From positions 114,436-178,435 of the forward strand of contig JBEIQD010000002.1 of the NCBI GenBank assembly GCA_040376695.1: a stretch of 64,000 bases of DNA, in the 5' to 3' direction. The stretch comes from Candidatus Nomurabacteria bacterium. Lineage in GTDB: Bacteria; Patescibacteriota; Minisyncoccia; Phycocordibacterales; UBA5272. The first letter of the stretch is position 1. Every line of letters begins with the position of its first letter. The position numbers and the translations under genes were made by a program. Below, piece by piece: positions 24,416 to 39,499 of the stretch. The notes under the pieces were generated by a model that was not told the DNA's origin, searched no databases, and was given only the letters and a program-made list of their open reading frames with translations.

Positions 24416-24808
24416 TTACTTTAAAAGATGTTTTATTTGATCCTTAGGGTCAAAACTTCCTCGAACAATTTCTCTCGCCCAAATACGAAATTCTTTTCCC
24501 CACTCACCTTTCACGCGAAACCCGAGCGCAATAACAACATCAGGATTATATACAAATATTTTTCTAGCAACCTTTTTCTTCCCTTCAGCTTGGGTCACTA
24601 TAAGTTCTCGCTCGCTTAGTGACTTAGTAAGTTCTTTTTCTCGGTAGATTTTCTTTAAGTGATCATTGACGGTTGGAATACTTCTCCCGTAAATACGAGC
24701 AATTCTTTTCTGTGTACTCCACACTTCATTATCCAAAATGAAAACACCCTCTTTTACTAACTTGGGGTATTGGTCCATATGCACATGCATAAGGTTCGAG
24801 TTCTTCAT
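24416..24808 (-). CDS. RhuM-family protein (N-terminal DNA-binding part)
   Basis: YNPDVVIALGFRVKGEWGKEFRIWAREIV resembles the RhuM motif YNLDAIISVGYRVNSKRGTQFRQWAT. Confidence 0.5.
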   Translation of the reverse strand: MKNSNLMHVHMDQYPKLVKEGVFILDNEVWSTQKRIARIYGRSIPTVNDHLKKIYREKELTKSLSERELIVTQAEGKKKVARKIFVYNPDVVIALGFRVKGEWGKEFRIWAREIVRGSFDPKDQIKHLLK

Positions 24809-24824
24809 ATCAAAAGTATACCAC

Positions 24825-25271
24825 TTAGAACTTGTTAGTTTTTCTCACCTCTTCTCGTACTTCCATCCACAATTTTCCAAGATGGTTCTTTCCATCTTTA
24901 TTCGGACCCCAGCCCCAGAAATTATCTCGCCAAGAATCTTCAACAAGTTCTCTATCTCCGGATTCGAGCAGCTTCTTTAATACGTATGGATGCTGTGCAA
25001 CTTTCGCATGAAGAATTTCTTTCATAACACTAAGCTTGATTTCATTCCAATCAGGACGTTGAAGTGGTTTATTCACTTGAGCGTATGTGAAGGCATCATG
25101 AGCTGATCGCATACCTGCGATAGCTTGCTTCATACTTTCATCTGTAAAACGTTCAGCGTGATATGCATGCTCTGATGTCATCCACACCACCCCTTTCCGT
25201 TCAAGGGCAAACGAAGAGAAGTTCGAAAACACATAATACTCATGTTCGTAGAAACAAATAGGCTCGTTCAT
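24825..25271 (-). CDS. NADAR-domain protein (YbiA-like N-glycosidase, DUF1768)
   Basis: FYEHEYYVFSNFSSF...WMTSEHAYHAERF. Confidence 0.75.
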   Translation of the reverse strand: MNEPICFYEHEYYVFSNFSSFALERKGVVWMTSEHAYHAERFTDESMKQAIAGMRSAHDAFTYAQVNKPLQRPDWNEIKLSVMKEILHAKVAQHPYVLKKLLESGDRELVEDSWRDNFWGWGPNKDGKNHLGKLWMEVREEVRKTNKF

Positions 25272-25290
25272 TCTGTGAGTATACCAAAAT

Positions 25291-25314
25291 AAAAGCGGCC
25301 GTACGGCCGCTTTT
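25291..25314. terminator. bidirectional hairpin terminator
   Basis: aaaagcggccgtacggccgctttt. Confidence 0.75.
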
Positions 25315-25316
25315 AT

Positions 25317-25847
25317 TTATCTATTTACTAGAACAGTGATAGCTTTTTTCAAATGTTCCCGAGTAGACTCGTCGGTAAGTTTTCCTTCAGCGTTAAACTT
25401 TTCATGTGCCGAACTAAGGTAAAATTCTGGTTGTCCTAGAACGTTTCCATTAAGGTACAACATAACTTGCTTAAGATGTGACTGTCCAAGTGTTGTTCCG
25501 GTTGGTGCGGGTGTTGTTCCGAGAATGAGAACAGGCTTTGCATCAAAAGCGTTCATTCCATATGGTCGAGACGCCCAATCAATAGCATTCTTAAGTACTC
25601 CTGGAATTGAGCGATTGTATTCTGGTGTTGCAAAAATAACTCCATCAGAAGCAAGTATTTTATCCTTAAGTGCTTGTGCTTCAGCTGGAAAAGAAACTTC
25701 CAAATCCTGATTATAAAGCGGAATTGATGAGATATCGTATATCTCAATGTTAGCAACCCCTTCCGCGACTTCTTTCGCAGCTTCTAGTAAACGTGTATTG
25801 AAAGAATCCTTACGGAGACTTCCTGACATAGCAATAAATGTTTTCAT
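25317..25847 (-). CDS. NAD(P)H-dependent FMN reductase
   Basis: 176 aa with an FMN_red fold (MKTFIAMSGSLRKDSFN...). Confidence 0.8.
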   Translation of the reverse strand: MKTFIAMSGSLRKDSFNTRLLEAAKEVAEGVANIEIYDISSIPLYNQDLEVSFPAEAQALKDKILASDGVIFATPEYNRSIPGVLKNAIDWASRPYGMNAFDAKPVLILGTTPAPTGTTLGQSHLKQVMLYLNGNVLGQPEFYLSSAHEKFNAEGKLTDESTREHLKKAITVLVNR

Positions 25848-25913
25848 GGTTTCAAATATATTCTTAGGTAGTAAGAATCTGAGTGTACGTTAGTTACTTT
25901 ACTTTGTAAAGTA

Positions 25914-26258
25914 TTGTATACTAGGAACATGAAAAAGCTAGACGAAAAAGATCCTGATTTTTGTCCCATTGCTCGCGTAGCCGAGCTTCTTGGTGATCCT
26001 TGCACGCTTCTTATCGTAAGAGATCTTCTTAAAGGAAATAAGCGGTTCAAAGATTTTGAGGAGTCCCTCTCGCCCATGAGCACTCGCACCATCAGCAACA
26101 AACTGAAAATTTTGGAAGAAAAAAACATTATTACAAGAACAGAGTTCAAGGAGAAGCCGCCGCGTGTGGAGTATGCGTTAACAAAAGAAGGTTTAAAGTT
26201 GCATGGACTGATTGAAGAAATGAAAACGTACGGGAAAAAGTATCTACAAAGAATTTAA
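25914..26258 (+). CDS. HxlR-family transcriptional regulator
   Basis: CPIARVAELLGDPCTLLIVRDL...RTISNKLKILEEKNII. It is divergent from the FMN reductase. Confidence 0.85.
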   Translation: MYTRNMKKLDEKDPDFCPIARVAELLGDPCTLLIVRDLLKGNKRFKDFEESLSPMSTRTISNKLKILEEKNIITRTEFKEKPPRVEYALTKEGLKLHGLIEEMKTYGKKYLQRI

Positions 26259-26689
26259 AGCACCTCTTGAGTAAAAATACTTTTTAGTTTTGTGGCGTCC
26301 GAAAAATCGGTTATCTGTTCTGGTGCATGATTAAGGATATTAAAACCCATTTCATCGTAGCGAGGAACTAGATGCCAATGAACATGTTTTACTTCATCAA
26401 GATACAGAAGATACACTTTTTCTAGACCATACACTTCGCGTACAGCTTTTCTCGTTAACTCAACAATATCCATAAGATACTCATACTCTTCCCTATTTAA
26501 CATCTGAATATCTTCCCTTCTTTCTTTCCAAACCACAATAGAGTGTCCTTGTGTAATAGGAAATGAGGCAAGACAAACATATACCTTGTCGTCTTCATAA
26601 TAAATAGATTCCAGCGGCGGAGTTAATAAGTCTTCCATGTTATTGCTTAGTATATCAGTTCGAAATAACAACAAAATAACCGCCTTCAA
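26255..26689 (-). CDS. HIT-family (histidine triad) hydrolase
   Basis: HVHWHLVPR histidine triad. Confidence 0.7.
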   Translation of the reverse strand: MKAVILLLFRTDILSNNMEDLLTPPLESIYYEDDKVYVCLASFPITQGHSIVVWKERREDIQMLNREEYEYLMDIVELTRKAVREVYGLEKVYLLYLDEVKHVHWHLVPRYDEMGFNILNHAPEQITDFSDATKLKSIFTQEVL

Positions 26690-26702
26690 ATTGAAGGCGG
26701 TT
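26678..26702. terminator. bidirectional hairpin terminator
   Basis: aaccgccttcaaattgaaggcggtt with flanking A/T runs. Confidence 0.75.
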
Positions 26703-26770
26703 ATTTTGTTGTGAAAACTGTGTGCCGTAGTAGAGATGATTAGAACCAGTATAACCCACCCATCTCCACA

Positions 26771-29353
26771 CTATTTATAATTAAACTTTTCCTTAAGATC
26801 TTTATAGTCCTGAACAAGACCTGCATAGGTTGGCTCGGGCTCTTCATCCGTCTGATTGTGTCTATTACCTTTTCTGCTGGTCTTATCAAAAAGATCATTC
26901 AGTTCTTTTACTTTATCTTTAGGCATTTCTGGAAGCAACGACAAACTAGACATCCTTAGATTAGCTCTATATCTACTGACGATACCCGCAAACATGATCT
27001 TTTCGACGTAGTCCTCAAGATAGTTACTCATTAGGTCATAAACAACTCCCAAATCTACACGTGAACGTTTAGGCGCTTTCTCTAGAATTTTCATTCTTTC
27101 ATCCATCTCTTCAATCTTTAGCTTTAGAGTACTAGCTGTGTCTAGTTTGGTAGATTCTAAAATTACTAATCCATCCATCTTTTTGAGATGAACCACTTTT
27201 TTAGTCTCATATTCCAACGAGTTTAGAAAATAGAGATTGTGGGTAAACACAATTACTTGATTATTTTCAGCAAGCTTCAGTATTCGCTTAGCAACATTCG
27301 TTATATTATCCTCGTCTAGACTGTTTACTGGATCATCAAAAATGTAGATACCCTCGTATTTGTTTACTTCACACTGCGCAAAGAAGTCCGCGAGCGAGTG
27401 GAGTTTCCTTTCTCCTTCGCTAAAAATATCACCTATTCTTTTATCGTCTAAACTGTAAGTTCTCTTATTCACGCCGTCTCTAGTTGTGGGCTTTATGCTC
27501 CAATATGGAGGAACAGTAAACTTTAAGCGTTTATATTCCTCAGAAAGACAGGTTTCGAATTCCTTTAATCCTGCGACTTTAGAAAACTCAGACTCTGCAC
27601 GACTTATAGATTGCTTAAGAACATATACCGCTTCGCGCTTTGCTTGTAGTTTCTCTCTTTCTTTTTTACTAGCTAAATACGAGATGATTGTTTTCTTGTT
27701 TTTCTCAATAATCGCCTCTTCTTCTAGAGGTAAAGCTTCTGCTGTCAAACTACGAACTGACTCAACTTTGTCAGTTGTTAGTTTCTCTAGTTTAGCTATC
27801 TCAACCCCAAAAGCTTCACATACAGATTCGTACTCTTTATAAAAAGTTTTTAATTTATCTATTTCCTCATCAGTCAAGCTAATAGCGGAGAAGTCCTTTA
27901 ACCCTTTTTCAATCTTTTTATAAATTCCCACTATCTCTTCAAGATTAGGAATAAGAGGTTCAGTCTTTTGTATATGACTAAACTCTGCTTCAATAGTCTC
28001 ATTGGTGCTTGCTAAGTCCTCTATCATTCTTATCTCTCTAGAAACATCCCCAGCTAGTTCGTTTATCTGACCTCTTTCTCTTCTTAGTTTACTTTCATGA
28101 TCGGAGGCTATTTCCCCGTAGGCTTTGATGAGGCTTTTCGATTCTGGAGTTGCTAAATGTTGCTGGCAATATAGGCAAGTTTCTGAAGCATATTCATGTT
28201 GAGAATCATGATCAAGTGTTTTAGTGAATTCTATACTCTTCTGAACGAAATCATTCCAAAGATCATCTTCTATCCACCCGCCTGCGACTAGTTGAGCTAT
28301 TTTGCCTCTTCCGTTTTCTTCAAATGCTTTCTTTGCAAGATTGAAATTCTCGATCCTGTCGCTGAAACTTTTTATCTTCTCCTTGTCGTATCGAAGCACC
28401 CATTCTCCCTCGTCATTCTCATCAGCAATACTTTTTAAGACATCTACAGCTTCTCTACTGGCAGTACGAATATTTTTTAAAGTCTCTTGTGGGTTATCTT
28501 TATTTAAAGTCTCAAGAGTCTTTTTTAGACTTGCCAGATGTTTCTTTTTCTTTGCGTCAAAATTAATAGTAGCAAGCTTAGCTTCAATATCTTCTTCAGA
28601 CAAATCAAGAAGGTCTGAAACATCTTCCTCTAAGATTGCTTCTGCGGAAGTAATTGAGGAATCTGTATCATCAATAGCCCTGTCTAGCACTTCTTCAACT
28701 CTTTCATAAAGATCTCTTAAGTAAGAAAAATACTCAAGCTTAAGGTGTGCAATTTTAAAAGCATTAGTTTGATCAGATTCAACTAAAATTTGAGATATAC
28801 CCCCGTCGAATATCTTAATAGGAAAACTCTTTGAGACTTCACCAGTTTTCCAGTTTAGAGTTTTACTAGCCCCGTCGAGTCCTTCGTAAACTAATGAGCA
28901 TTCTGAATTCTTAATCGCAGAAGCAAGATTGGGATACACTTGCTTGTTTATTCCGAAGAGTTTGCAAAGAGCAAGATATACGGAACTTTTACCCGCTCCA
29001 TTCTTTCCATAAAACACATTTAATCCCTTATCTAGAGCTATAGGCTCCTTTATATCCAGCAATCCGACATTTAGTATCTTAGAGATTTCTTTTATCGCCT
29101 TAGCTTCTGACCCAGACTCTGCCAACGTAACAACCTCAGTCTTCTTTGAAGAACCAGTTTTTGCCTTCTTTGGAGACCTCTTAAGCTCCAATGCAACTGT
29201 AGAAATTTCTTCATCATCAAGACAATCACTTAAAACAGACTCAACCAGAGGTTGAATCCATGCATATTTTTTATCAACACAAACAGAACTAGCCTTTATG
29301 TGGCTAATTGCGTCAGGAAGAATGATTGCGTCTTTGTCTCCTTCTGGTGGCAT
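26771..29353 (-). CDS. RloC-like anticodon-nuclease-type defence protein (ABC-ATPase with coiled-coil/CxxC hook and C-terminal HEPN-like domain)
   Basis: 860 aa with Walker A GKNGAGKSS, an ABC signature-like FSEGERK, Walker B IYIFDDPVNSLD and H-loop FTHN. The ATPase halves are split by a ~500-aa predicted coiled coil containing ETCLYCQQH (CxxC). The C-terminal ~150 aa carry RKGNRH (Rx4H). Confidence 0.55.
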   Translation of the reverse strand: MPPEGDKDAIILPDAISHIKASSVCVDKKYAWIQPLVESVLSDCLDDEEISTVALELKRSPKKAKTGSSKKTEVVTLAESGSEAKAIKEISKILNVGLLDIKEPIALDKGLNVFYGKNGAGKSSVYLALCKLFGINKQVYPNLASAIKNSECSLVYEGLDGASKTLNWKTGEVSKSFPIKIFDGGISQILVESDQTNAFKIAHLKLEYFSYLRDLYERVEEVLDRAIDDTDSSITSAEAILEEDVSDLLDLSEEDIEAKLATINFDAKKKKHLASLKKTLETLNKDNPQETLKNIRTASREAVDVLKSIADENDEGEWVLRYDKEKIKSFSDRIENFNLAKKAFEENGRGKIAQLVAGGWIEDDLWNDFVQKSIEFTKTLDHDSQHEYASETCLYCQQHLATPESKSLIKAYGEIASDHESKLRRERGQINELAGDVSREIRMIEDLASTNETIEAEFSHIQKTEPLIPNLEEIVGIYKKIEKGLKDFSAISLTDEEIDKLKTFYKEYESVCEAFGVEIAKLEKLTTDKVESVRSLTAEALPLEEEAIIEKNKKTIISYLASKKEREKLQAKREAVYVLKQSISRAESEFSKVAGLKEFETCLSEEYKRLKFTVPPYWSIKPTTRDGVNKRTYSLDDKRIGDIFSEGERKLHSLADFFAQCEVNKYEGIYIFDDPVNSLDEDNITNVAKRILKLAENNQVIVFTHNLYFLNSLEYETKKVVHLKKMDGLVILESTKLDTASTLKLKIEEMDERMKILEKAPKRSRVDLGVVYDLMSNYLEDYVEKIMFAGIVSRYRANLRMSSLSLLPEMPKDKVKELNDLFDKTSRKGNRHNQTDEEPEPTYAGLVQDYKDLKEKFNYK

Positions 29354-29397
29354 TGGCTAAAGTATATGCCTTTTCAGATTGTATAGATACTACCAAT

Positions 29398-29820
29398 TTA
29401 AGACTCTTTTTTGAGCTCAGCGATCTCGTTAATCATATATTTTTCTGTCTCAGTAACTGTGACCGTACCCGCTTCAATTTGCCAAGCTTGAGAGATGATA
29501 GTCTCATTTGTAAAAAGGTTCTTAACCGACCAAGCCTTATGCGCGATTTGTGATTTATTGTCATACATAAAAACCTTCTCCAAAGAAAGACAAGCCTTCT
29601 TTGCAGGACTAAAGAAAACTTCGAAATCAACAGATGAAATACTCTCATTGTTTATTTCACTCTTCTCTTGCTTCTTTAGGTCTGGTAAAAAAGTGGCACA
29701 TTTCATATCCATAGCAAGCCCGTCATCTTTTTTACTCTCCTTTTCTAGAAAAAACGAATAACCCAATACAACGTTAAGGAGAACAGAAGCACACAAGAAG
29801 AATGTTATGTTTCGATTCAT
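29398..29820 (-). CDS. hypothetical N-terminally membrane-anchored protein (~140 aa)
   Basis: The start was chosen at MNRNITFFLCASVLLNVVLGYSFFL (TM helix). It lies immediately upstream of, and co-oriented with, the RloC-like gene. Confidence 0.35.
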   Translation of the reverse strand: MNRNITFFLCASVLLNVVLGYSFFLEKESKKDDGLAMDMKCATFLPDLKKQEKSEINNESISSVDFEVFFSPAKKACLSLEKVFMYDNKSQIAHKAWSVKNLFTNETIISQAWQIEAGTVTVTETEKYMINEIAELKKES

Positions 29821-30322
29821 GATATGTAAAAGATCTGGTGGGCAAACAAAAAGCCCATTACCAGTTATGGTCGTAAGACCAACATGTGCCTTTCGACACA
29901 CGACACTCAGCATGCCCACTGATAATGGGTTCTTTATTGCTGAGTGATTTTTAAAACCATACCTTAATGTTTCCACTAAGGGTTAGGTCAGAATTACACG
30001 TTATTAAGTTGTAGTAACAAGGTTATTATAGCATTTATCAATTCCTGTCACTGCTGTTACACCAAAAGTGCTATCACAGGGCAATATACGTGTTATCACG
30101 GGAGAAAGTAGGCGCACATTAATAAGCTAAGCCCTTGAAAAATAAAGAGAAGATCAGTGAAATAGTATAAAAAGAATTACTTTTACTCTCTATGGGTCTA
30201 TTTTAAGGCTTATAGAGGGTGGGGTGGGTGGTTCCCCTTTCGTTTAGAGCTTAATTATTAGGTACCCATCGGAAACGCTATGCAATTTTTAATTTATGTA
30301 TAACAAAATCTGAAAAGTCGCT

Positions 30323-30352
30323 TGCAATTTTTTCGATTTCGTGGTACAATAT
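30323..30352 (+). promoter_or_regulatory. near-consensus sigma70-type promoter
   Basis: TTGCAA, a 17-nt spacer, an extended -10 TGG, then TACAAT. Confidence 0.55.
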
Positions 30353-30615
30353 GTCTTATCTTCCCCTGAGGGAAAGATTTTACAAAAGAATTCTCGTTTA
30401 TAGAAGGTTCCTAAATAAACGACGACATTATTTTTGATCAAAATCCACTTCGACGCATTTATATCAATGGGCATACGATAGACATTCCGTCTTACTCGAT
30501 TTGAAACAAATCTTAATTACGAGATTCTAGATTAACAATAGGAGAAATCTGCACTTTTATTCCCTTTATGAATAAATTGGTGCTTTTTACATCTCCAACA
30601 CTAGATTAATAACAA

Positions 30616-30921
30616 TTGGACATAGAACACACTACTCTCCGCTTAAGGAGCGAAGAAAATGCAGGACTAGGAAGAATCTTTAGAGAGTTAAGAAAAATAC
30701 AAAGACTTGAAGTCCTTGGAGACATAATTCTCTACAAAACTATTATTAACACTCTTTCACTAAACGGCTATGAGGTATCAGAAAGATCTATTACAAGGCA
30801 CTTTGTAAATATTGATCTAGATGACTACAACCCAGAAGATCGTCGAGAAATTATAAAAGACCTCAAAGGAGGTTCCAAGAAAATTTACGAACAAGCAAGG
30901 AGAGGTCATAAACGACCCTAA
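30616..30921 (+). CDS. hypothetical small protein with possible HTH (element regulator/excisionase candidate)
   Basis: 101 aa. LSLNGYEVSERSITRHF is HTH-like. The C-terminus is basic. Confidence 0.35.
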   Translation: MDIEHTTLRLRSEENAGLGRIFRELRKIQRLEVLGDIILYKTIINTLSLNGYEVSERSITRHFVNIDLDDYNPEDRREIIKDLKGGSKKIYEQARRGHKRP

Positions 30922-30971
30922 AATCCTCTACAAACGACGAGGACTGCCTTTGCCGACCTAATTACTAAAGC

Positions 30972-31151
30972 ATGTTTTTATCATCTAAAAACGTCTCCGA
31001 CTTTCAGGAGATTTACAAAGAAACTTTTAACGAAGAAATTTCAACAGAAGAAGCAATTGAACAAGGGGCAAAACTTATAGAGCTCATAAGAGCTGTGTAC
31101 AGACCCATCACTAAAGAAAATTACGAAAAATACAAAATAACTCATGGATAA
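30972..31151 (+). CDS. small ORF (59 aa) translationally coupled to the downstream replication gene
   Basis: MFLSSKNVSDFQEIYKETFNEEISTEEAIEQGAKLIELIRAVYRPITKENYEKYKITHG. Its stop overlaps the next start (ATGGATAA). Confidence 0.2.
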   Translation: MFLSSKNVSDFQEIYKETFNEEISTEEAIEQGAKLIELIRAVYRPITKENYEKYKITHG

Positions 31152-32430
31152 ATACAATCAACTTACAACAGAAGAACTGGCGGATATTCTCTCGCTAACA
31201 ATAAAGGAGGATAAGGAAAATAAAGTGGCGACTTTCCTTTGCCAACTATCGGCATTCACTGAGGACTCTCAGTTCAATGTTTTATTTAACGCCCCTTCGT
31301 CATCAGGTAAATCTTATATACCTTTAGAGATAGCAAATCTATTTCCACAGGAAGACGTTCTGAAAATTGGGAACTGCTCTCCGACCGCTTTCTTTCATGA
31401 GCAAGGAGAGTACGATAAGGCAACAAATACAACTATGGTAAATCTAGAAAGAAAAATTCTCATATTTCTAGATATGCCACACACTCAGCTTTTAGAGAAA
31501 TTGCGTTCCCTTTTATCTCATGATGAAAAGGAAATGGTTTCAAAAATTACAGACAAAAGCGAAAAAGGTGGACACAGAACAAAGACAGTAATTCTAAGAG
31601 GTTATCCTTCTGTGATTTTCTGCTCAGCAGGATTCAATATTGACGAACAAGAGTCAACGCGATTTCTACTTCTTAGTCCAGAATCTACACATGAGAAGAT
31701 ACAACAAGCTATTGATCAAACAATTAGACGGGCTTCAAACTTAGAAAGCTACGAAGAGTGGCTCAATGCCGACCCAAGAAGGCAACTACTCCGAGAAAGA
31801 ATTGTAGATATTAAAAGGTCTCTCGTGGGAGATATACAAATATCTTCTGAGGGGCTTGTTAAAGAACTATTCATGCAAAATAAGAAAAGCTTGAAGGCAA
31901 GAGATCAGAGAGACATCAAAAGATTTGTCGCTTTAATTAAATCTTTTGCTTTGTTAAATCACTGGTGGAGAAAACAAACTAAGACTGGCATAATTGCCAA
32001 TGAAAATGATATCAGACAGGCATACGAGATATGGAAGAAGATTTCAGTATCACAGGAGTTTAATTTAGCTCCTTATGTCTACGATCTTTACAAAGATATT
32101 ATTATTCCTCTTTGGAAAGAAAAGAAGGTCGAGGTCATGAGTGACGAATTTAATCTTGATAAGCGTTATGGTATCTCTAGGTATGAAATACTACAGCGTC
32201 ATTACGACTTACACAAAAGAATGCTGGACGGATATAAGCTACGAACAGAAATATTAAGGGTGTTAGAAATAGCAGGTCTCATAACTCAAGAGCAAGATGT
32301 AAATGATAAAAGAAAATATCTAGTTTTCCCTTCAGTTGAAATTGAAGAAGAGTATAGTGTGGAGGAAGGTGGGGTGGCTAGCATTGTGAACACAAAATAC
32401 ATGCCCGTGTTTGCTGAAAATAATGCTTAG
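31144..32430 (+). CDS. SF3-helicase-like replication protein (phage/plasmid primase C-terminal-type P-loop NTPase)
   Basis: Walker A NAPSSSGKSY, Walker B ILIFLDMPH, and motif C VIFCSAGFN. 428 aa. Confidence 0.45.
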   Translation: MDKYNQLTTEELADILSLTIKEDKENKVATFLCQLSAFTEDSQFNVLFNAPSSSGKSYIPLEIANLFPQEDVLKIGNCSPTAFFHEQGEYDKATNTTMVNLERKILIFLDMPHTQLLEKLRSLLSHDEKEMVSKITDKSEKGGHRTKTVILRGYPSVIFCSAGFNIDEQESTRFLLLSPESTHEKIQQAIDQTIRRASNLESYEEWLNADPRRQLLRERIVDIKRSLVGDIQISSEGLVKELFMQNKKSLKARDQRDIKRFVALIKSFALLNHWWRKQTKTGIIANENDIRQAYEIWKKISVSQEFNLAPYVYDLYKDIIIPLWKEKKVEVMSDEFNLDKRYGISRYEILQRHYDLHKRMLDGYKLRTEILRVLEIAGLITQEQDVNDKRKYLVFPSVEIEEEYSVEEGGVASIVNTKYMPVFAENNA

Positions 32431-32553
32431 GTATATTATAAATATGCGAAACCATAAGATTAACCTTGATATTTGTAGCCAAAGATGGGGTAACAGTACT
32501 TGTGGTTTCGCGATTACAAGTATCATGCTGTTGCCCCTTTTTTGGTACAAGAT

Positions 32554-34176
32554 ATGAAAAAATTAAATAACGAAATTGAGTATTTTCTATATGCTCGCAA
32601 ATCATCAGAAAGTGATGATAGGCAAGTTCAATCTATAGATGATCAGATAGATAGACTAAAAGAATACGCTTCGCGTGTTGGTATTAAAATTAAAAAAGTC
32701 TTTATAGAAGCAAAGTCTGCTAAATTGCCAGGCAATAGACCAGTGTTCGCTGAAATGATGGAAGGAATAAAAGCAGGTAAGGCTCAAGGCATTCTGTGTT
32801 GGCAGATTAATCGTCTATCTCGTAATCCTGTAGATGGAGGAATGATTAGCTGGATGCTTCAACAAGGAATAATAAAATCTATCCAAACAACGGAAAGAGA
32901 ATACAAACCTGAAGATAACACTTTACTTTTAAGTGTTGAAACTGGTATGGCGAATCAGTTTATTATTGATCTAAAGAAAAATGTTCGGCGAGGAATGGAC
33001 GGCAAGGCGCAAAGAGGAGAGTATCCTACAAAGCCCCCTCTTGGTTATAAGAATGATCGTCTTAACAAGACGATTGTTAGTGATGAGGAAAGATTGCCAA
33101 TGATTAAGAAAATGTGGGACATGCTTCTTTCTGGAAACTACAGACCTCCAATGATAGTAAAGATAGTAAACGAAGAGTGGGGATTTAGAACTCCAAGAAC
33201 TCCCAAAGGAGGAGATAAGGAAATATCTAAATCTACCATCTACAAATTATTCAACAACATATTCTATGCTGGAGTATTTGAATGGCATGGAGAAATTCTG
33301 CAAGGTAATCATAGGGCAATCATCACACTAGATGAGTATGATAAAGCTCAGAGAATTTTAGGTAAAAAAGGTAAGCCACGATTCTCTAAACATGAACATG
33401 CATACACTGGCGAAATTCAGTGTGAAGAGTGCGGTTGTTTGCACACTGCAAGTTTGAAGTCTAAAGTGCTATCTAATGGGGAATCAAAATCTTACGGTTA
33501 TTACTACTGCACGAGAAGAAAGAAGAATCTAAATTGTAGCCAAACGGGAAAACTAACAACTCAGGAATTGGAAAATCAGATAGACGCGGAACTGAAAAAG
33601 TGTCAGATACACCCTAGATTTCTACAGTGGGCTCTAGACTATCTACAAGAAAGGAAGGAAGTTGATTTTGAAAACAAATCTACTATACGCGAACAACAGG
33701 AAGCAACATATAACAAGATTCAGGGTGAGTTAAGCAATCTCTCAAAAATGCTTTATAAGGAACTCATAAGTGAAGAGGAGTTCCTAAGTATGCGAGATGA
33801 TTTACGTTCACAATCTGCAAAAGTAAAATCAGCTCTAGATAATACCGAGAATGAATCCGCCAAATGGCTTGAGCTTACTCAAGAGTTTTTCCAATTCTCT
33901 GCCTACGCACGAGACCGCTTTAACGATCCTGAAGCAACAGCTCAAGAAAAGAAAGCTATTTTCCGTGCTTTAGGTTGGAACTTTAGCATAAAAGATAAAG
34001 TACTCCGTATTTCTAAGCACAAATGGATAGAAACTGTAGAAAACGAGTATCCATCTCTAGAAAAGAGAATCACTGCGTTAGAACTGGATAAAAACCTTGC
34101 TGTTACTGAACGAACCAAGCAAATTAGCATGATTCGTCTCGATTGGTGTGCCTATCGAGATTCGAACTCGAACTGA
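32554..34176 (+). CDS. large serine recombinase (integrase)
   Basis: N-terminal resolvase-type catalytic domain (YARKSSESDDRQ...CWQINRLSRN), a recombinase domain, and a Cys-rich zinc ribbon (CEECGC...CTRRKKNLNC). The last 33 nt overlap tRNA-His antisense. Confidence 0.85.
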   Translation: MKKLNNEIEYFLYARKSSESDDRQVQSIDDQIDRLKEYASRVGIKIKKVFIEAKSAKLPGNRPVFAEMMEGIKAGKAQGILCWQINRLSRNPVDGGMISWMLQQGIIKSIQTTEREYKPEDNTLLLSVETGMANQFIIDLKKNVRRGMDGKAQRGEYPTKPPLGYKNDRLNKTIVSDEERLPMIKKMWDMLLSGNYRPPMIVKIVNEEWGFRTPRTPKGGDKEISKSTIYKLFNNIFYAGVFEWHGEILQGNHRAIITLDEYDKAQRILGKKGKPRFSKHEHAYTGEIQCEECGCLHTASLKSKVLSNGESKSYGYYYCTRRKKNLNCSQTGKLTTQELENQIDAELKKCQIHPRFLQWALDYLQERKEVDFENKSTIREQQEATYNKIQGELSNLSKMLYKELISEEEFLSMRDDLRSQSAKVKSALDNTENESAKWLELTQEFFQFSAYARDRFNDPEATAQEKKAIFRALGWNFSIKDKVLRISKHKWIETVENEYPSLEKRITALELDKNLAVTERTKQISMIRLDWCAYRDSNSN

Positions 34177-34219
34177 GGGCTCCACAAGCCCGCGTGCTAA
34201 CCATTACACTATAGGCACC
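34144..34219 (-). tRNA. tRNA-His (anticodon GTG) with encoded G-1 and CCA
   Basis: Manual fold: 7-bp acceptor GTGCCTA/TAGGCAC preceded by G-1. D-loop AATGGTTA. Anticodon loop TTGTGGA. T-loop TTCGAAT. A73-CCA. One C-U mismatch at 27-43. Confidence 0.75.
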
Positions 34220-34356
34220 ATCTGCAACATTCCGCTGGGAATGAGGGTTTTACTCTAACACATTTTCCTGCTTTTTTGAAGAGTGCGCTTTTCTTTGGAA
34301 GTGCTAGAGTTATCTTTGTATCGTTCATTACAACAGCAACAACCCAGGAGACAATC

Positions 34357-34881
34357 ATGATGAAACGCTTTATTTTCCTTGTGGTTTTGGCATTTTCCCC
34401 GTTTTACAGTTTTGCTGACAGCTACGACCGTTACGACGGTTGGTCAGGAACCTTATACGGGTTCAGTCACCACGCAACCCAAAACCAGAAAAACCCCTAC
34501 GAGGAATTCAATCCGGGTATCGGCATCCGCAAACATTTTGGTGAATGCTTCTGGAGAAGCGCCAACTGTTTCGCAGAATTGGGCTACATCCACAGAAATA
34601 GCTTAGGGGGAAAGGTGAAGATGGCTTCCGTAGGGAGCAAGTGGACGCTGTTTACAGTTGACAACTATCGGTTTCACGTTGGTGGAACCATCACCTATAT
34701 CGAATACGGGAACCCTTTTAGCAAAAAGACTCTCCACGGATTTGCCCCAATTCCATTGATTGGCGTTGGGAAAAATTCCTGGGACTTCGATGTGTCGATC
34801 CTTTCCAAAAAACCTCTCTCGGCATTAACCGGGAAGGACGAAAAAGCTGTATTCTTGTTGTCTTTTGTACACAGGTTCTGA
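34357..34881 (+). CDS. outer-membrane beta-barrel-like secreted protein (PagL/OmpW-like), GC-rich
   Basis: Signal peptide MMKRFIFLVVLAFSPFYSFA after an AGGAG RBS. Alternating hydrophobic beta pattern. C-terminal ...FVHRF (aromatic-x-Phe OMP signature). GC is ~50%. Confidence 0.45.
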   Translation: MMKRFIFLVVLAFSPFYSFADSYDRYDGWSGTLYGFSHHATQNQKNPYEEFNPGIGIRKHFGECFWRSANCFAELGYIHRNSLGGKVKMASVGSKWTLFTVDNYRFHVGGTITYIEYGNPFSKKTLHGFAPIPLIGVGKNSWDFDVSILSKKPLSALTGKDEKAVFLLSFVHRF

Positions 34882-34897
34882 AGCAAGAACCTCCAAT

Positions 34898-34937
34898 TAA
34901 AACCCCACACCGTGTTAGTGTGGGGTTTTGCTTTTTT
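34898..34937 (+). terminator. rho-independent terminator
   Basis: aaaaccccacaccgtgttagtgtggggttttgctttttt. Confidence 0.75.
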
Positions 34938-34968
34938 AATTTAAAACAACAATCTAGATTCTTACTAC

Positions 34969-35001
34969 AAAAAACTACAAGAATTATTCTTGTAGTTTTT
35001 T
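34969..35001. terminator. bidirectional hairpin terminator downstream of tRNA-Leu
   Basis: aaaaaactacaagaattattcttgtagtttttt. Confidence 0.65.
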
Positions 35002-35004
35002 ATA

Positions 35005-35091
35005 TGGTGCCCAGGAGAGGACTTGAACCTCCATGCCGTTGCCAGCGCTACCACCTCAAGGTAGTGCGTCTACCAGTTTCGCCACCTGGGC
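35005..35091 (-). tRNA. tRNA-Leu (anticodon GAG), long variable arm, CCA encoded
   Basis: Acceptor GCCCAGG/CCTGGGC. Anticodon stem CTACC/GGTAG with loop TTGAGGT. Extra arm. T-loop TTCAAGT. Confidence 0.85.
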
Positions 35092-35180
35092 ATATTTAAA
35101 ATGTCTCTTCTTTAGAAGTATTGAAATACTACCACAGAATACAGTAAAACAAAAACCCGCACGAATGCGGGTTTTTGTTT

Positions 35181-35606
35181 TTATGCTGTTACTTCTTCTG
35201 GAGTTTCAACTACTGTTTCTACTGTAGTTACACCATCTTTCTTAACAACACGAACATCTTTCTTAAGCTTACGACGTACATCACGTAGCGCCTTATCACG
35301 CACATAGTAAAGCTTACTTCGGCGTGTATGTGAGTGGCGAACCACTTCGATCTTATCGATCATAACTGAGAAAAGTGGGAATACACGTTCAACTCCAACA
35401 CCTGAGGCAACTCGACGAACAGTAAATGTCGCACCGATTTCAGTTCCATGCTTACGAGCAAGTACCATTCCTTCAAAGGCCTGAAGACGAGTCTTTCCGT
35501 CTGCTTCTTTAATCTTATTCCAAACTCGAACAACATCTCCTGAAGCAAATTCGATTGCTTTTCGTGATTCAATGTCGACTGGTGTTAATATAATCGTCGT
35601 TTTCAT
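35181..35606 (-). CDS. rplS: 50S ribosomal protein L19
   Basis: 141 aa: FASGDVVRVWNKIKE...FTVRRVASGVGVERVFPL. Confidence 0.9.
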   Translation of the reverse strand: MKTTIILTPVDIESRKAIEFASGDVVRVWNKIKEADGKTRLQAFEGMVLARKHGTEIGATFTVRRVASGVGVERVFPLFSVMIDKIEVVRHSHTRRSKLYYVRDKALRDVRRKLKKDVRVVKKDGVTTVETVVETPEEVTA

Positions 35607-35643
35607 ACGTGGTTTTATGTTCGGCTATGATATCACAAAAAAA

Positions 35644-36369
35644 CTATATAAGCAAGAGCTTTTCTAGTACCTCTTGCATGTCTTGTGGCACTTCACAGGT
35701 GAAGGTTTTTTCAATATACCCTTCAGATTCGCCTGGAATATTAATGGTAAGGGAGTACGCATGTAGCATTGAACGTGGCGCAACATCTCTTCCTGCCTTT
35801 GATCCATATAAATCATCCCCAATAATTGGGTGACGAATACCCCTAAAATGAGCTCTAATCTGGTGAGTGCGACCAGTGAGCGGATAACATTCTACATAGC
35901 AGTACTGCTTTCCATCTGCTGCTGTTGAGCGCTTAAGAACTTTGTATCGAGTGATTGCTTCACGTTCCTCCCCTCGCGCGTCCCCTGAAAACATATCTAC
36001 AATGGTTCGTTTCCTAAAGTCTGACTTAGCGCGGGCAATTGGAAGTGAAACCATACCCGTATCGTGCTTTATATTACCCTCAACAATCGCTCGATATATT
36101 TTGCGTGTTGTGTGATCTTTAAACTGCTTTTTAAGTGTGGTAAAAGAAATATTATTCTTAGCAAGAATAAGCACGCCTGTAGTATTCCTGTCTAATCGAT
36201 GCACAATTCCCTCACGCCCTTTGTCCCCCACTCCGTCCATTGGATACGTTTTTGCCATCCAATCCGCAATAGTTTCTTCGTCTTGCCTGTCGTCAGGGTG
36301 CACCATAATACCCGCTGGTTTATTGATGACAAGCGTGTGTTTATCTTCGTAGACAATAGGGAGATTCAT
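35644..36369 (-). CDS. RluA-family pseudouridine synthase
   Basis: HRLDRNTTGVLILAKN catalytic motif. Confidence 0.9.
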   Translation of the reverse strand: MNLPIVYEDKHTLVINKPAGIMVHPDDRQDEETIADWMAKTYPMDGVGDKGREGIVHRLDRNTTGVLILAKNNISFTTLKKQFKDHTTRKIYRAIVEGNIKHDTGMVSLPIARAKSDFRKRTIVDMFSGDARGEEREAITRYKVLKRSTAADGKQYCYVECYPLTGRTHQIRAHFRGIRHPIIGDDLYGSKAGRDVAPRSMLHAYSLTINIPGESEGYIEKTFTCEVPQDMQEVLEKLLLI

Positions 36370-36420
36370 AGATGTAGTTTAACAAAAATGACACGCAACC
36401 GCGTGTCATTTTTGCATTTG

Positions 36421-36493
36421 TGGGCAATAGAGGATTCGAACCTCTGACCTTCGCTGTGTAAAAGCGCTGCTCTACCAACTGAGCTAATCGCCC
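36421..36493 (-). tRNA. tRNA-Val (anticodon TAC)
   Basis: Acceptor GGGCGAT/ATTGCCC. D-arm GCTC-AGTTGGTA-GAGC. Anticodon loop TTTACAC. T-arm AGAGG-TTCGAAT-CCTCT. No encoded CCA. Confidence 0.8.
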
Positions 36494-36541
36494 AAGTACG
36501 TAAATACTACAACATTTTATCTTTTTTTACCAGCCCGTCCA

Positions 36542-36781
36542 CTAGTGGTGGTATATTATTTTTTCTATCTCCTGGAGAGCGGCTTGTGGATCTTCTTCAA
36601 ATTTTCTCATCAGCTCTGGGTGAGTTGTTATAAGACTTCTAAACTCTTCACCATGAACGCCGGCAAAAACCTCCAAATCCTCTCCGTGCATTTGCGCAAG
36701 TTGTATTTGAATTGTATTTCCCATCTGAACCTCTCTCTCGGATTGAGATAGAGAAGCGCCTCCCATTTGTTCCATTTTCAT
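36542..36781 (-). CDS. hypothetical small protein
   Basis: ORF between tRNA-Val and tRNA-Arg. The start is uncertain (MKMEQM...). Confidence 0.3.
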   Translation of the reverse strand: MKMEQMGGASLSQSEREVQMGNTIQIQLAQMHGEDLEVFAGVHGEEFRSLITTHPELMRKFEEDPQAALQEIEKIIYHH

Positions 36782-36843
36782 ACAAGATAAGTATACCCCA
36801 TCGCAGGATAAGTGTTTTTTTGCTAGTATGTGGTAATCCAATT

Positions 36844-36918
36844 GCCCTGGTAGTTCAATGGATAGAACAGCGGACTTCTAAGCCGTTAATAGTGGTTCGA
36901 TTCCACTCCGGGGCACCA
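36844..36918 (+). tRNA. tRNA-Arg (anticodon TCT), CCA encoded
   Basis: Acceptor GCCCTGG/CCGGGGC. D-loop AATGGATA. Anticodon loop CTTCTAA. T-arm AGTGG-TTCGATT-CCACT. Confidence 0.85.
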
Positions 36919-37010
36919 AAACGTTTATAGAGGTATTTACATATTCAACCACAGCGCTACACTCAATAATGAGTGTTCCCCGTTCATAAACCTAACTGAG
37001 GAGAAGAGTC

Positions 37011-37217
37011 ATGCCTTCTGACTGGATTCAGGATCGCGATGCAGTGATCGACCCTGAAGCAAACACATCTCAACAGCAATCACATAGCCTCAAAAGTAGC
37101 CAAAAAACGCGTCGCCCAAGACGCGTCGCCCAAATTTTCCATGACGACAATTTGTGTGACGAGCAACCTCCACATCTTGCCGACCCTACCAGCATCTCAC
37201 GTGAACATCTCATGTAG
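37011..37217 (+). CDS. hypothetical small Arg-rich protein in a GC-rich patch
   Basis: A GAGGAG RBS lies 7 nt upstream. It contains the tandem 13-bp repeat. Coding status is uncertain. Confidence 0.3.
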   Translation: MPSDWIQDRDAVIDPEANTSQQQSHSLKSSQKTRRPRRVAQIFHDDNLCDEQPPHLADPTSISREHLM

Positions 37218-37235
37218 TTTCTAAAACCCGCATTG

Positions 37236-37265
37236 CAAAAAGCGCCCCAGGAAGGCGCTTTTGTT
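37236..37265. terminator. bidirectional hairpin terminator
   Basis: aaaaagcgccccaggaaggcgcttttg. Confidence 0.7.
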
Positions 37266-37497
37266 ATTCGTAGATAACCACTCTACCTAATCTATCTTCC
37301 AGTTTTCTTCCAAGCATTCTTTGTGCGTCCCCTGTCCCACACACGATTACTTCGTCCTTCCCTATTTTGTGAACAATAGTATCAAGCACTTCACTTATTG
37401 CTTTTGTAATTTCTTCTTCGATAAGAATTTTCCCGACAGGAATAGTTTCTCCATCAAACACAATATAGTCATCAAAGATACACACGTGATGTTTCAT
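37264..37497 (-). CDS. hypothetical protein (77 aa)
   Basis: Compact ORF between the terminator and the DedA gene. No family recognised. Confidence 0.4.
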   Translation of the reverse strand: MKHHVCIFDDYIVFDGETIPVGKILIEEEITKAISEVLDTIVHKIGKDEVIVCGTGDAQRMLGRKLEDRLGRVVIYE

Positions 37498-37499
37498 GC

Positions 37500-38078
37500 T
37501 TATAGTATACCCAAATATACTAGCAGCACATAGAGAGCAATGAGTGCGACAATTCCTATTGTTACCACCTTTGTATGTTTCAAAATATATTCACGCGCTT
37601 CATCTCCATATTCATACGAAAAGTAAGCGACAATACCCACTCGAATTAGACGACCCAAAAAGAAAGCAGTTACTACGACAATAAATGAAAGTGAAAATAC
37701 TCCAGACAGAAATGCAAAGATTCGATCTGGAAGTGGGGTAAACGCTGCGAGAAACATACTCACAAACGTATTGTGCTCAAACATTGTTTGCGTGTAAGTT
37801 GCTAACAGTGATGAATCAAAAAAACTCTGGAACCATGTTTGGTATGTGGTATATAAATATTTTCCCGTAACATACAAAAGTGCTGCCCCTGTTGCAGAAC
37901 CAGCTGCAGAAATAACACTGAGGAGTTTCCAAGAGATATCTTTTCTGTACGAGAGCACTGCCGCAACAACAAGCTCTGGCAAAAGTGGAGATATTGTTGT
38001 TTCAAGAAAAGCCACAATAAATACCCCTGTTTTTATCCAAGACCTGGTCGCAACGTAGGCAATCCACCTATCTATCAT
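37500..38078 (-). CDS. DedA/TVP38-family membrane protein
   Basis: FLETTISPLLPELVV motif and multiple TM helices. The start was set at the internal Met. Confidence 0.6.
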   Translation of the reverse strand: MIDRWIAYVATRSWIKTGVFIVAFLETTISPLLPELVVAAVLSYRKDISWKLLSVISAAGSATGAALLYVTGKYLYTTYQTWFQSFFDSSLLATYTQTMFEHNTFVSMFLAAFTPLPDRIFAFLSGVFSLSFIVVVTAFFLGRLIRVGIVAYFSYEYGDEAREYILKHTKVVTIGIVALIALYVLLVYLGIL

Positions 38079-38103
38079 CTTCACTTCTTTCTGAAGTGTT
38101 GTA

Positions 38104-38481
38104 CTAACGAAGTTTTGTTCCATTTGGAAGAGGTGTTGTTGGATTAAGGAGTGCAAATGAATCATCTGTTGATCCCGCTAAAATCATTCCTTGTGATTCA
38201 TGTCCACGCAACATACGTGGGGCAAGATTTGTTATAAAAGGAAATTGTTTTCCTAATAAATCTTCCGGCTGCACAAACTCTCTAATCCCTGAAAGTATTT
38301 GTCGTGGGGACGTTTCGCCAAGATCAACTTGTAATATATAAAGTTTGTCCGCACCTTCAACAATATTAACTGATACAACTGTTCCTAGTCTGATTTCTAT
38401 TTTTAGAAAATCATCAATAGTAGCAAAAACCTTCTCAGGAATTACCTCCTCCTTTTTTATTTCTTCCTGTGGTTCATTCAT
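38104..38481 (-). CDS. stand-alone tRNA-binding protein (Trbp111/CsaA/EMAP-like OB domain)
   Basis: ...IRLGTVVSVNIVEGADKLYILQVDLGE...QGMILA. The start was chosen at MNEPQEE, preceded by GGGGGA. Confidence 0.6.
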   Translation of the reverse strand: MNEPQEEIKKEEVIPEKVFATIDDFLKIEIRLGTVVSVNIVEGADKLYILQVDLGETSPRQILSGIREFVQPEDLLGKQFPFITNLAPRMLRGHESQGMILAGSTDDSFALLNPTTPLPNGTKLR

Positions 38482-38491
38482 ATCCCCCACT

Positions 38492-38962
38492 TTACCAGTT
38501 ATCATTTCCTCTGTCACTTTTGTTGTCTTCTTCATCGTCCTCCTCTTCAAACTCTTCATCATTTGAAATGACAGGGCCATGAACCTTATCAAGATATCTC
38601 TGAAGCACAATTGCAGCAGCCTGATCATCTACTTCTCGGGTTGCCTCGTTTCCTGGCTGCTTTCGAGCCTCCACTGTTGAATACCATTCTTTTTCATACG
38701 CGATAATAACGTCAGCAGCAGATTCCAATTTAGCACCAAAAGCACGCGCTTCCTTCGCCACAGGATTTGGCTTTCCTTTTTGATCAACACTTTCCCCGAT
38801 AACAATTGTTCCGAATTTCATTTCGCGAATAAGCTCCATCGTATCCTTAAAGAGTTGAGCGTCGTTTGGAGAAATCATAAGAGGAAAAGCTAGACGCCCC
38901 TCATCGTCTGATTGCGCAAAGCCAACCTTCTTCGTACCAAAATCAATTCCTAAATATTTCAT
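38492..38962 (-). CDS. ruvX: Holliday-junction resolvase-like RuvX/YqgF with acidic tail
   Basis: MKYLGIDFGTKKVGFAQSDD... Confidence 0.85.
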   Translation of the reverse strand: MKYLGIDFGTKKVGFAQSDDEGRLAFPLMISPNDAQLFKDTMELIREMKFGTIVIGESVDQKGKPNPVAKEARAFGAKLESAADVIIAYEKEWYSTVEARKQPGNEATREVDDQAAAIVLQRYLDKVHGPVISNDEEFEEEDDEEDNKSDRGNDNW

Positions 38963-38985
38963 GCTCTATAGTATATCAACTAGTT

Positions 38986-39246
38986 TTATTTCTTTCCCCA
39001 TCTCCAACTTGGTTTCTCACCTTTTTTGTAAGAAATTACGATAAGTAAAATCGTAACTCCCGCCATCAGAAAATGGTAATACAGTGGCGCTCCAGAACCG
39101 CCGCCGTCTAATGCTTTGTCCACCGTTGACCTGACATAGATAAATACAGAAAAAAGATATAACACTATCACTAACCACCCTTCCCATGAGCTCGGTGTCC
39201 ATCCCCATCCATACGTTTTTGCCTTAAACCAAAGTTTCTTTTCCAT
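38986..39246 (-). CDS. small two-TM membrane protein
   Basis: Trimmed to MEKKLWF..., because the longer ORF overlaps tRNA-Ser on the other strand. Confidence 0.3.
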   Translation of the reverse strand: MEKKLWFKAKTYGWGWTPSSWEGWLVIVLYLFSVFIYVRSTVDKALDGGGSGAPLYYHFLMAGVTILLIVISYKKGEKPSWRWGKK

Positions 39247-39317
39247 ATACCCTAAGTATACAGTAGATATTTCAAAAAAAGGCAAACCATGATAGAGTAG
39301 TACAACAATCGAAAGTT

Positions 39318-39404
39318 GGAGGAGTGGCAGAGTGGTCGATTGCACCTGTCTTGAAAACAGGAGTCTGGGCAACCGGACCGTGAGTTCGAATCTCACCTCC
39401 TCCG
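39318..39404 (+). tRNA. tRNA-Ser (anticodon TGA), long variable arm
   Basis: Acceptor GGAGGAG/CTCCTCC. Anticodon stem CCTGT/ACAGG with loop CTTGAAA. T-arm GTGAG-TTCGAAT-CTCAC. Discriminator G. Confidence 0.85.
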
Positions 39405-39499
39405 CAGTAAAGAAAAGACCGAAAGCTAAAGCTTTCGGTCTTTTCTTTGTCACAGTATTCTGATGTAAACCGTTATACTTACTATAACCCCACAACACT

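Follow-up and report, generated by a model that had tools for sequence, protein, structure and literature searches.

What does an 860-residue ATPase, split by a long helical arm and ending in a small helical domain, do at the far end of a strain-specific insert beside a tRNA-His gene? The question is raised by a 64,000-nucleotide stretch of a Candidatus Nomurabacteria genome (contig JBEIQD010000002.1, positions 114,436 to 178,435; hereafter the window, to which all positions refer), in which the gene for this protein occupies 26771-29353 on the minus strand. The first-pass annotation, made from the letters of the window alone, had read it as an RloC-like ATPase-nuclease. The analysis described here identifies the protein with high confidence as an RloC-like zinc-hook ATP-binding cassette (ABC) ATPase of the PDC-S06 class and makes a role in defence likely. 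We lean slightly towards a specific form of that role, modelled on RloC, in which the protein would be a single-component, abortive-infection-type defence ATPase, carried as cargo of an integrative element and cutting RNA through a HEPN-like site. The gene and the parts of the protein on which the argument turns are as follows (evidence in brackets; ORF, open reading frame; AF2, AlphaFold2).

26771..29353, minus strand: RloC-like gene, 860 aa, ABC ATPase with zinc hook and HEPN-like domain, PADLOC PDC-S06 family (ORF, PADLOC PDLC04891, Pfam AAA_13)
29105..29353, minus strand: N-terminal extension, residues 1-83, subfamily-specific (hhalign start, conservation, AF2)
28736..29104, minus strand: ABC ATPase head, N-lobe, residues 84-206 (Pfam, AF2, conservation of Walker A)
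27527..28735, minus strand: helical insert splitting the ATPase, residues 207-609 (AF2 DSSP, Foldseek)
28166..28177, minus strand: CxxC zinc-hook motif, C393-L-Y-C396 (conservation, alignment with RloC CPFC, AF2)
27149..27526, minus strand: ABC ATPase head, C-lobe, residues 610-735 (Pfam, AF2, motif positions, conservation)
26774..27148, minus strand: all-helical C-terminal domain, residues 736-860, candidate HEPN-like RNase effector (AF2 domain model, conservation in 163 sequences, HEPN topology rules)
27014..27028, minus strand: S776-N-Y-L-E780, with the helix-2 acid E780 and a Ser at the triad-Arg position (conservation, hhalign, triad definition of PMC2610378)
26858..26875, minus strand: Rx4H motif RKGNRH, residues 827-832 (conservation, position relative to the helices)

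An ATPase with a Putative Zinc Hook, Homologous to RloC

The ORF is intact and uninterrupted, and the elements of an ABC ATPase are distributed over its length: a Walker A motif (GKNGAGKSS, residues 116-124; DNA 28982-29008), the ABC signature (FSEGERK, residues 644-650; DNA 27404-27424), the Walker B/D-loop (IYIFDDPVNSLD, residues 669-680; DNA 27314-27349) and the H-loop (FTHN, residues 703-706; DNA 27236-27247). Between the two lobes, near the middle of the insert, ETCLYCQQH (residues 391-399) contributes the cysteines C393 and C396. All of these strings, together with the C-terminal RKGNRH, lie where the first-pass annotation had put them. K122, C393, C396, E648, D673 and D674 are kept in every one of 103 full-length family members and H705 in 102, while in Walker A G116 and G121 are as invariant as K122, and Q398, just beyond the hook, is conserved in 100 of the 103. 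Because they are near-invariant across this set, the ATPase and hook strings are, on the evidence of conservation, functional motifs and not chance occurrences.

Profile searches place the protein in a catalogued class. Pfam returns AAA_13 (2.3e-18), SMC_N and AAA_21, and NCBIfam gives nothing above its cut-offs. The PADLOC annotation proposed at the first pass yields a full-length assignment to PDC-S06: model PDLC04891 aligns residues 29-855 with model positions 14-848 of 858 (E 7.8e-69), and the four models PDLC04891/92/88/93 all match the full length, N- and C-terminal domains included (E 7.8e-69 to 2.6e-56). The PADLOC PrrC model covers the ATPase core only (residues 663-739, E 1.3e-8), and the LmuB and mad3 models are secondary matches. 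A profile of the family compared by hhalign with canonical RloC, represented by proteins of ~761 aa that the Joint Genome Institute (JGI) names 'wobble nucleotide-excising tRNase' (COG4694), gave a probability of 98% (E 2e-13), with residues 86-853 collinear with RloC residues 1-755 over 672 aligned columns at ~17% identity. Judged by these profiles, the protein is homologous to RloC across the ATPase heads and the CxxC insert, and the RloC-like architecture suggested for it holds.

The PDC entries of PADLOC are 145 untested 'phage defence candidates', picked for their embedding in BREX, DISARM or type I restriction-modification (R-M) loci (bioRxiv 10.1101/2024.01.29.577857). Since canonical RloC and the RloC-like proteins of H. 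pylori match other, sister PDC-S06 models, PDC-S06 spans the RloC superfamily. The gene is a divergent member of this already catalogued PDC-S06/RloC-like ABC-HEPN class; the idea that it might be a new variant was overstated, the family having already been modelled at full length in PADLOC as an untested candidate. A homologue search recovered 23 close relatives of 33-49% identity, for the most part Pacebacteria-like sequences from metagenomes, and distant members at ~20%. An exhaustive search with a hidden Markov model of the C-terminal domain found 2001 cluster representatives (50% identity clusters, E<=1e-3), and because almost all of these clusters carry the domain at the end of proteins of 850-880 aa, the subfamily is, from its sequences, a large family of fixed architecture.

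The full-length AF2 model, built on 23 sequences (predicted local distance difference test, pLDDT, 77.7), shows the expected order of domains: an N-terminal helical domain, the ABC N-lobe, long helices flanking the CxxC motif, the ABC C-lobe and a helical C-terminal domain. Its top Foldseek matches in the PDB are Rad50 (7zr1, E 2.4e-10), SMC heads with coiled coil (5xei), Lamassu LmuB and JetC, and PDB sequence searches with the whole protein and with canonical RloC return Rad50/SMC ATPases only. The head as modelled is of Rad50/SMC-like fold, in keeping with the layout read at the first pass. The insert amounts to 403 aa, of which 82% is helix in the AF2 model (DSSP), and the hook is flanked by arms of 186 and 213 aa; a long helical insert is indeed present, at ~400 aa (207-609) and not at the ~500 aa first assigned to the coiled coil. 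In the model a short loop flanked by two isolated strand/bridge residues holds the CxxC motif, which aligns with the CPFC of canonical RloC, with Q following in both. The near-equal arms, the central position of the putative zinc hook and the Foldseek matches suggest an antiparallel packing of the two arms.

One part of the protein lies outside this homology. The hhalign alignment begins at residue 86, opposite RloC residue 1, so the first ~85 residues have no RloC counterpart. In the AF2 model they form a small helical extension (helices within 15-55) followed by a disordered linker (58-81). Such an extension is a feature of the subfamily: a median of 115 residues precedes Walker A in the 103 members, and W32 is conserved in 93 of them. 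No Pfam family was found for it in a scan at E<=10, which gave scattered chance matches only.

A HEPN-like C-Terminal Domain

The effector, if the protein has one of its own, would be the C-terminal domain. It comprises ~125 residues (736-860), so that a separate domain of the kind first described is present and its size was put too high, at ~150. A dedicated AF2 model (pLDDT 84; predicted template modelling score 0.79) resolves helices H1 (739-759), H2 (765-787), H3 (812-827) and H4 (843-857). H2 carries Y772, S776, E780 and E784; the H2-H3 insert (788-811) holds R794 and N798 as well as a short helix; R827 is the final residue of H3, and R831 and H832 lie in the loop that follows. Among 163 aligned C-domain sequences Y772, E780 and H832 are each conserved in 162, E784 in 160 and R794 in 159, with R827 present in 138 and R831 in 65. 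The published topology rules for HEPN domains call for an acidic residue on the second helix, an insertion between that helix and helix 3, and an Rx4-6H motif where helix 3 ends (PMC3710099), and all three features occur here, as E780, residues 788-811 and R827...H832. The motif and topology that led to the earlier description of the domain as HEPN-type are therefore seen in the model; homology to RloC/PrrC or to a HEPN family was not established by hhalign, Pfam, PDB or Foldseek searches. A different reading of the polar residues, with R794-x3-N798-x33-H832 as a PrrC-like triad, was dropped, since the same rules put the acid in helix 2 and the Arg and His where helix 3 ends, and R794 and N798 lie in the H2-H3 insert.

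RloC itself is defined by an Arg-x3-Glu-x36-52-His triad, of which R692, E696 and H737 are each essential in the Geobacillus kaustophilus enzyme (PMC2610378). The present protein reads S776-x3-E780-x51-H832, that is, with the triad Glu and His present and the Arg absent. The first-pass annotation had seen no R-x3-E-x31-H triad, which is literally correct, but the spacing of 51 between E780 and H832 falls within the x36-52 of RloC, and an Arg stands four residues before the Glu in 97 of the 163 sequences, giving a literal R-x3-E-x51-H; the other 66, this protein included, have Ser at 776. At position 831 an Arg is found in 65 of the 66 Ser-776 sequences (the remaining one is gapped), and G, A, S, V or D in all Arg-776 sequences. 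Within the 163, no sequence carries both arginines, and every one without a gap there has one of them. A tree of the N-terminal 700 aa gathers the S776/R831 type into what is essentially a single clade (52 of 53 leaves; at least 2 changes needed). The pattern is thus the signature of a clade and would fit an active-site arginine that has been relocated, and R831, directly before the putative catalytic His, probably takes over the role of the triad Arg in this clade.

Several results weigh against a nuclease in this position and against the mode of action that we favour. The residue after the motif Arg (828) is K here, where HEPN domains typically have a polar N/D/H, and the alignments show G, K, R, L, Y, W, D or N at this position. 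Domain-only hhalign comparisons with canonical RloC C-domains, made in local, global and mact-0 modes with the full set and with its R-type and S-type subsets, reached probabilities of 0.03-1.3% with conflicting registers, and the register based on R794-x3-N798 scored as poorly as the others. No Pfam HEPN model matches the domain or any of 19 members at E<=10, the same scan of the domain and of the 19 members producing scattered chance matches (e.g. PoNi_N, 0.002). A PDB sequence search with the C-domain profile found nothing. Foldseek found generic helical bundles in the PDB (best E 0.67; HEPN toxins appeared no better than E 3.5-4) and nothing in BFVD; no solved structure of RloC or PrrC was found, so the Foldseek result says nothing about these two. 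The triad Arg, essential as R692 in G. kaustophilus RloC, is Ser in this protein, and the covariation of 776 with 831 is statistically weak, because the S776/R831 type is essentially one clade; its use as strong statistical evidence was rejected once the tree had given this result. Finally, a literature search found no functional test of PDC-S06 and no activity, target or trigger reported for the subfamily.

Because no search ties the domain to a known family, and because position 828 is atypical, we call it only HEPN-like, a term that here refers to motif and topology; homology to RloC/PrrC or to any HEPN family is unproven. Whether it is an RNase we regard as an even call.

The missing link to any nuclease, in sequence or in fold, also fits a protein that does no cutting itself. 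It would then be an SMC/Rad50-like DNA sensor whose C-domain serves in regulation or docking, and other proteins acting in trans, for example adjacent R-M enzymes, would do the killing or restriction, as LmuB needs LmuA in Lamassu. LmuB and mad3 are secondary PADLOC matches, the LmuB structure is among the Foldseek matches, and homologues often stand directly after R-M modules (loci L009, L011 and L007, described below). Such a division of labour is nevertheless unlikely. The most conserved residues of the C-domain are polar and of catalytic type (Y772, E780, E784, R794 and H832, each in at least 159 of 163 sequences) and stand at HEPN catalytic positions, and no partner gene is conserved in the 12 neighbourhoods examined, the gene being solitary in L005, L012, L019 and the insert of the window.

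Conversely, the C-domain could be the RloC nuclease itself, diverged too far for its profile to be recognized, in which case the protein would be a true RloC orthologue that responds to DNA double-strand breaks by cutting the wobble nucleotide out of specific tRNAs. In favour of this, the full-length alignment is collinear, and its tail crosses the C-domain at low confidence with S776, E780 and H832 placed on RloC R673, E677 and H732; the sister clade has a literal R-x3-E-x51-H, the size is within the 658-897 aa of RloC, a Q follows the CxxC motif in both, and the contexts are restriction-linked. Against this stand the lack of signal in the domain-only comparison, where the R794-x3-N798 register is equally poor, the absence of the triad Arg here, the additional N-terminal domain and the identity of ~17%, and we consider orthology quite improbable.

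Proposed Mechanism

For RloC, the ATPase/zinc-hook switch that silences the RNase, its activation by DNA breaks and the mutagenesis of the triad are experimental (PMC2610378, PMC3458546, PMC3874168). By analogy, the abortive-infection mechanism that we favour would begin with two molecules of the protein paired through their Zn-bound hooks and ATP-engaged heads, and in the resting state the ATPase/hook module would hold the C-terminal RNase silent. DNA ends or damage, accompanying phage infection or failed restriction, would make the heads hydrolyse ATP and would activate the nuclease. RNA would then be cut without a metal at the HEPN-like site, with H832 as general base and R827/R831 and E780 as helpers, the most likely place of the cut being the anticodon loops of tRNAs, whereupon translation would stop and the infection abort. 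The anticodon loop as target is a tentative suggestion carried over from RloC.

Most Homologues Lie in Restriction, Defence or Recombinase Contexts

Twelve distinct neighbourhoods were compared (the window, L002, L005, L007, L009, L010, L011, L012, L016, L017, L018 and L019), and nine are linked to restriction/defence genes (five) or to recombinases (four). The homologue in L009 directly follows type I hsdM-S-R genes. In L007 the homologue follows an MmeI/Eco57I-type module, and the dense island in which they lie also has radical-SAM, AAA_15 and Cas3-like genes. In L011 only 17 bp separate it from a preceding methyltransferase/DEAD-helicase/DUF4391 module, and genes for TIR and GIY-YIG/Eco57I are close by. 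The L016 homologue adjoins an MmeI-type R-M system, MazEF, RloB plus AAA_15/21, and DUF3644, and that of L017 follows Mrr/NA-iREase1 and RmuC. Serine recombinases or resolvases on mobile elements adjoin the gene in the window, L002, L010 and L018; the contexts of L005, L012 and L019, where the homologue is solitary, are uninformative. Members are plasmid-borne in Actinomycetota, Bacillota and Pseudomonadota, and a phage collection contained no homologue. No Mre11/SbcD-like partner turned up in any of the 12 neighbourhoods, and none of the neighbouring genes is conserved across them. A consistently chromosomal occurrence, as of housekeeping SMC-like proteins, would have spoken against a defence gene and is not seen.

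In L011 (Mycolicibacterium plasmid NZ_CP126903.1) TIR- and HIT-domain genes occur at 10767-12274, 2-3 kb downstream of the homologue. The presence of HIT genes near both this homologue and the gene of the window is probably a coincidence, the HIT gene of the window being conserved backbone.

The Gene Is Cargo of an Integrative Element at tRNA-His

The surroundings of the gene in the window are made up of the following features.

26662..34140, no strand assigned: strain-specific insert of 7.5 kb between HIT and tRNA-His (blastn synteny with the relative L013)
32500-34176, plus strand: phage-type large serine integrase (phrog_95, 1.5e-67; Pfam Resolvase/Recombinase/Zn_ribbon_recom)
31144-32430, plus strand: P-loop orphan, 428 aa, with the motif NAPSSSGKS (ORF in the insert)
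29398-29919, minus strand: membrane-protein ORF, 173 aa (gene caller)
34144..34218, minus strand: tRNA-His (GTG), the integration landmark (tRNA annotation)
26669..26711, minus strand: terminator-like hairpin, a perfect 20-bp stem with a T-run (inverted repeat 3' of the stop codon at 26771, beside the synteny break at ~26661)

The relative L013 (JAHFMX010000003.1) shares the HIT flank, with a HIT gene 86% identical, and the tRNA-Arg/Val/Leu/His array, and in blastn its synteny with the window breaks at 26661 and, where tRNA-His has its 3' end, at 34141. In the slot of the insert L013 has sortase, ice-binding-like and multicopper-oxidase genes and not the RloC-like gene. The G+C content of the insert is 0.35-0.385, against 0.39-0.43 in the flanks. 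Besides the integrase and the 428-aa P-loop protein the insert holds small ORFs, and the RloC-like gene lies at the end far from the integrase. It is thus the distal cargo of a serine-integrase element at tRNA-His in a genome of the Patescibacteria (Paceibacterota-like), and the earlier placement of the gene within a tRNA-His-associated element is borne out. The borders of the element were set by synteny with L013 and not by att repeats, as a search for an att direct repeat or a displaced copy of the tRNA-His 3' part at the opposite end found neither. Over its final 33 nt (34144-34176) the integrase ORF overlaps the 3' part of tRNA-His in antisense. The hairpin at 26669-26711 is terminator-like and could alternatively mark the end of the element. 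The P-loop protein, for which no Pfam, PADLOC, NCBIfam or PHROG family was found, may be a replication or maintenance protein of the element.

Two genes next to the RloC-like gene were considered as parts of the same system and rejected. On its 3' side the HIT gene is separated from it by the hairpin and the synteny break, is kept in the insert-free L013 and is not adjacent in other contexts. On its 5' side the 173-aa membrane protein had been put forward at the first pass as a partner or immunity factor; a small gene with one strongly hydrophobic segment does lie there, although its upper coordinate, given as 29820, is 29919 according to the gene caller. The same strand, the gap of 44 bp and the hydrophobic segment would suit a two-gene pair, either toxin with immunity protein or sensor with effector. 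Yet tblastn of the membrane protein against 11 homologue loci (L002-L012) found nothing better than E ~1, other members have small ORFs upstream that show no relation to it or among themselves, and it belongs to no Pfam, PADLOC, NCBIfam or PHROG family. With no homologue near the relatives and different neighbours in every context, a conserved partner was rejected, and a two-gene system is very unlikely.

That the gene encodes a housekeeping Rad50/SbcC-type ATPase of DNA repair or chromosome maintenance, as its closest solved structures (Rad50 and SMC heads) and the JGI name of one homologue ('SbcCD ATPase subunit') might suggest, is scarcely credible for a gene in a strain-specific insert absent from a close relative, plasmid-borne and patchy across phyla, that has no Mre11/SbcD-like neighbour in 12 contexts and encodes an additional C-domain that Rad50/SbcC lack (PMC2610378).

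Other variable patches were noted around the element. In L013 a mere 128 bp separate tRNA-Leu from tRNA-His; compared with it, the window has an insertion of ~660 bp at 34285-34995, in which the ORF 34276-34881 (plus strand) has a weak PagP-like PHROG match (5.8e-6), odd for a Patescibacteria-type genome. A second patch, 25272-26272, holds FMN-reductase and HxlR genes in place of ~3.3 kb of other sequence in L013 (10367-13694). In the conserved backbone outside the insert a truncated RhuM-like gene (130 aa; PADLOC PDC-S05, 1.8e-29) stands beside a NADAR-domain gene (24416-25271); a survey of HEPN proteins records that RloC/PrrC loci are often near RhuM-like genes. Seven tRNA genes on both strands lie within ~11.5 kb (34144-45644) among housekeeping genes, which is unusually dense, and a patch of low G+C content at 60001-63000 (0.32-0.35, against ~0.40-0.43 elsewhere) could be another island.

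Relation to Known Systems and Significance

One of the closest known systems is RloC (COG4694; Davidov & Kaufmann 2008). The two share the order of ABC head, coiled-coil insert with CxxC hook and C-terminal helical effector domain, significant homology in the ATPase and hook, a size in the RloC range, the Glu/His spacing and the occurrence as a single gene that is often linked to restriction or carried by a mobile element. The protein of the window differs in its additional ~83-aa N-terminal domain, in a C-domain not detectably homologous to that of RloC, in the Ser at the triad-Arg position with an Arg beside the His instead, and in a clear Rx4H motif, absent from the sampled canonical clade (…YANxFHHD…). 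PDC-S06 as defined lumps this subfamily with canonical RloC-like proteins; its models match the protein in full, the N- and C-terminal domains included, and within it the protein is a divergent Patescibacteria-type member of the S776/R831 type (66 sequences), not of the R776 type (97). PrrC, the tRNA-Lys anticodon nuclease, shares the concept of an ABC ATPase joined to a C-terminal metal-independent RNase, and the P0018 homologue directly follows hsdMSR. However, PrrC has ~400 aa, lacks the coiled-coil/zinc-hook insert, is always embedded in a type Ic R-M locus and is silenced by EcoprrI, whereas the present protein has 860 aa with an insert of 403 aa and no R-M genes in the insert of the window. 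The ABC-HEPN fusions APECO1_4465 and ERFG_01251 (Anantharaman et al. 2013), likened here by description only, have a C-terminal HEPN domain and lie in mobile islands or prophages. Rad50/SbcC, LmuB (Lamassu) and JetC (Wadjet) offer the best structural matches, with head and coiled coil (and a zinc hook in Rad50), but work with separate nuclease or kleisin partners and have no C-terminal domain, and no such partners are encoded nearby.

A more far-reaching proposal, which we hold to be doubtful, would make the ~860-aa subfamily a distinct and very widespread sister of RloC, its C-domain being present in at least 2001 clusters at 50% identity. As effector it would have a HEPN-like RNase that was either recruited independently or heavily remodelled, the N-terminal domain would be a new sensor, and the Patescibacteria-rich clade to which this gene belongs would have moved the active-site arginine from 776 to 831. 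With the arginine relocated, the catalytic centre would be a rewired one, which could change the cleavage chemistry or the RNA target. On this proposal ultra-small symbiotic bacteria would also have a functioning suicide RNase, carried by an integrative element of no more than 7.5 kb.

The locus opens no long-standing question and is best seen as a well-delimited, testable member of an expected class. The features of modest interest are the additional N-terminal domain, the C-domain untied to RloC by sequence, the Ser776/Arg831 pair and the minimal element in Patescibacteria. For defence annotation it matters that PDC-S06 in PADLOC holds at least two types of effector domain, the canonical RloC nuclease and the HEPN-like domain accompanied by an additional N-terminal module. 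If the abortive-infection mechanism proposed here is true, the untested PDC-S06 class would be tied to the mechanism of RloC, with K122, C393/C396, E780, R827, R831 and H832 as candidate residues for mutagenesis. For the Patescibacteria the gene is an added candidate for single-gene abortive infection, and the serine-integrase element that carries it, inserted at a tRNA gene, is very small.

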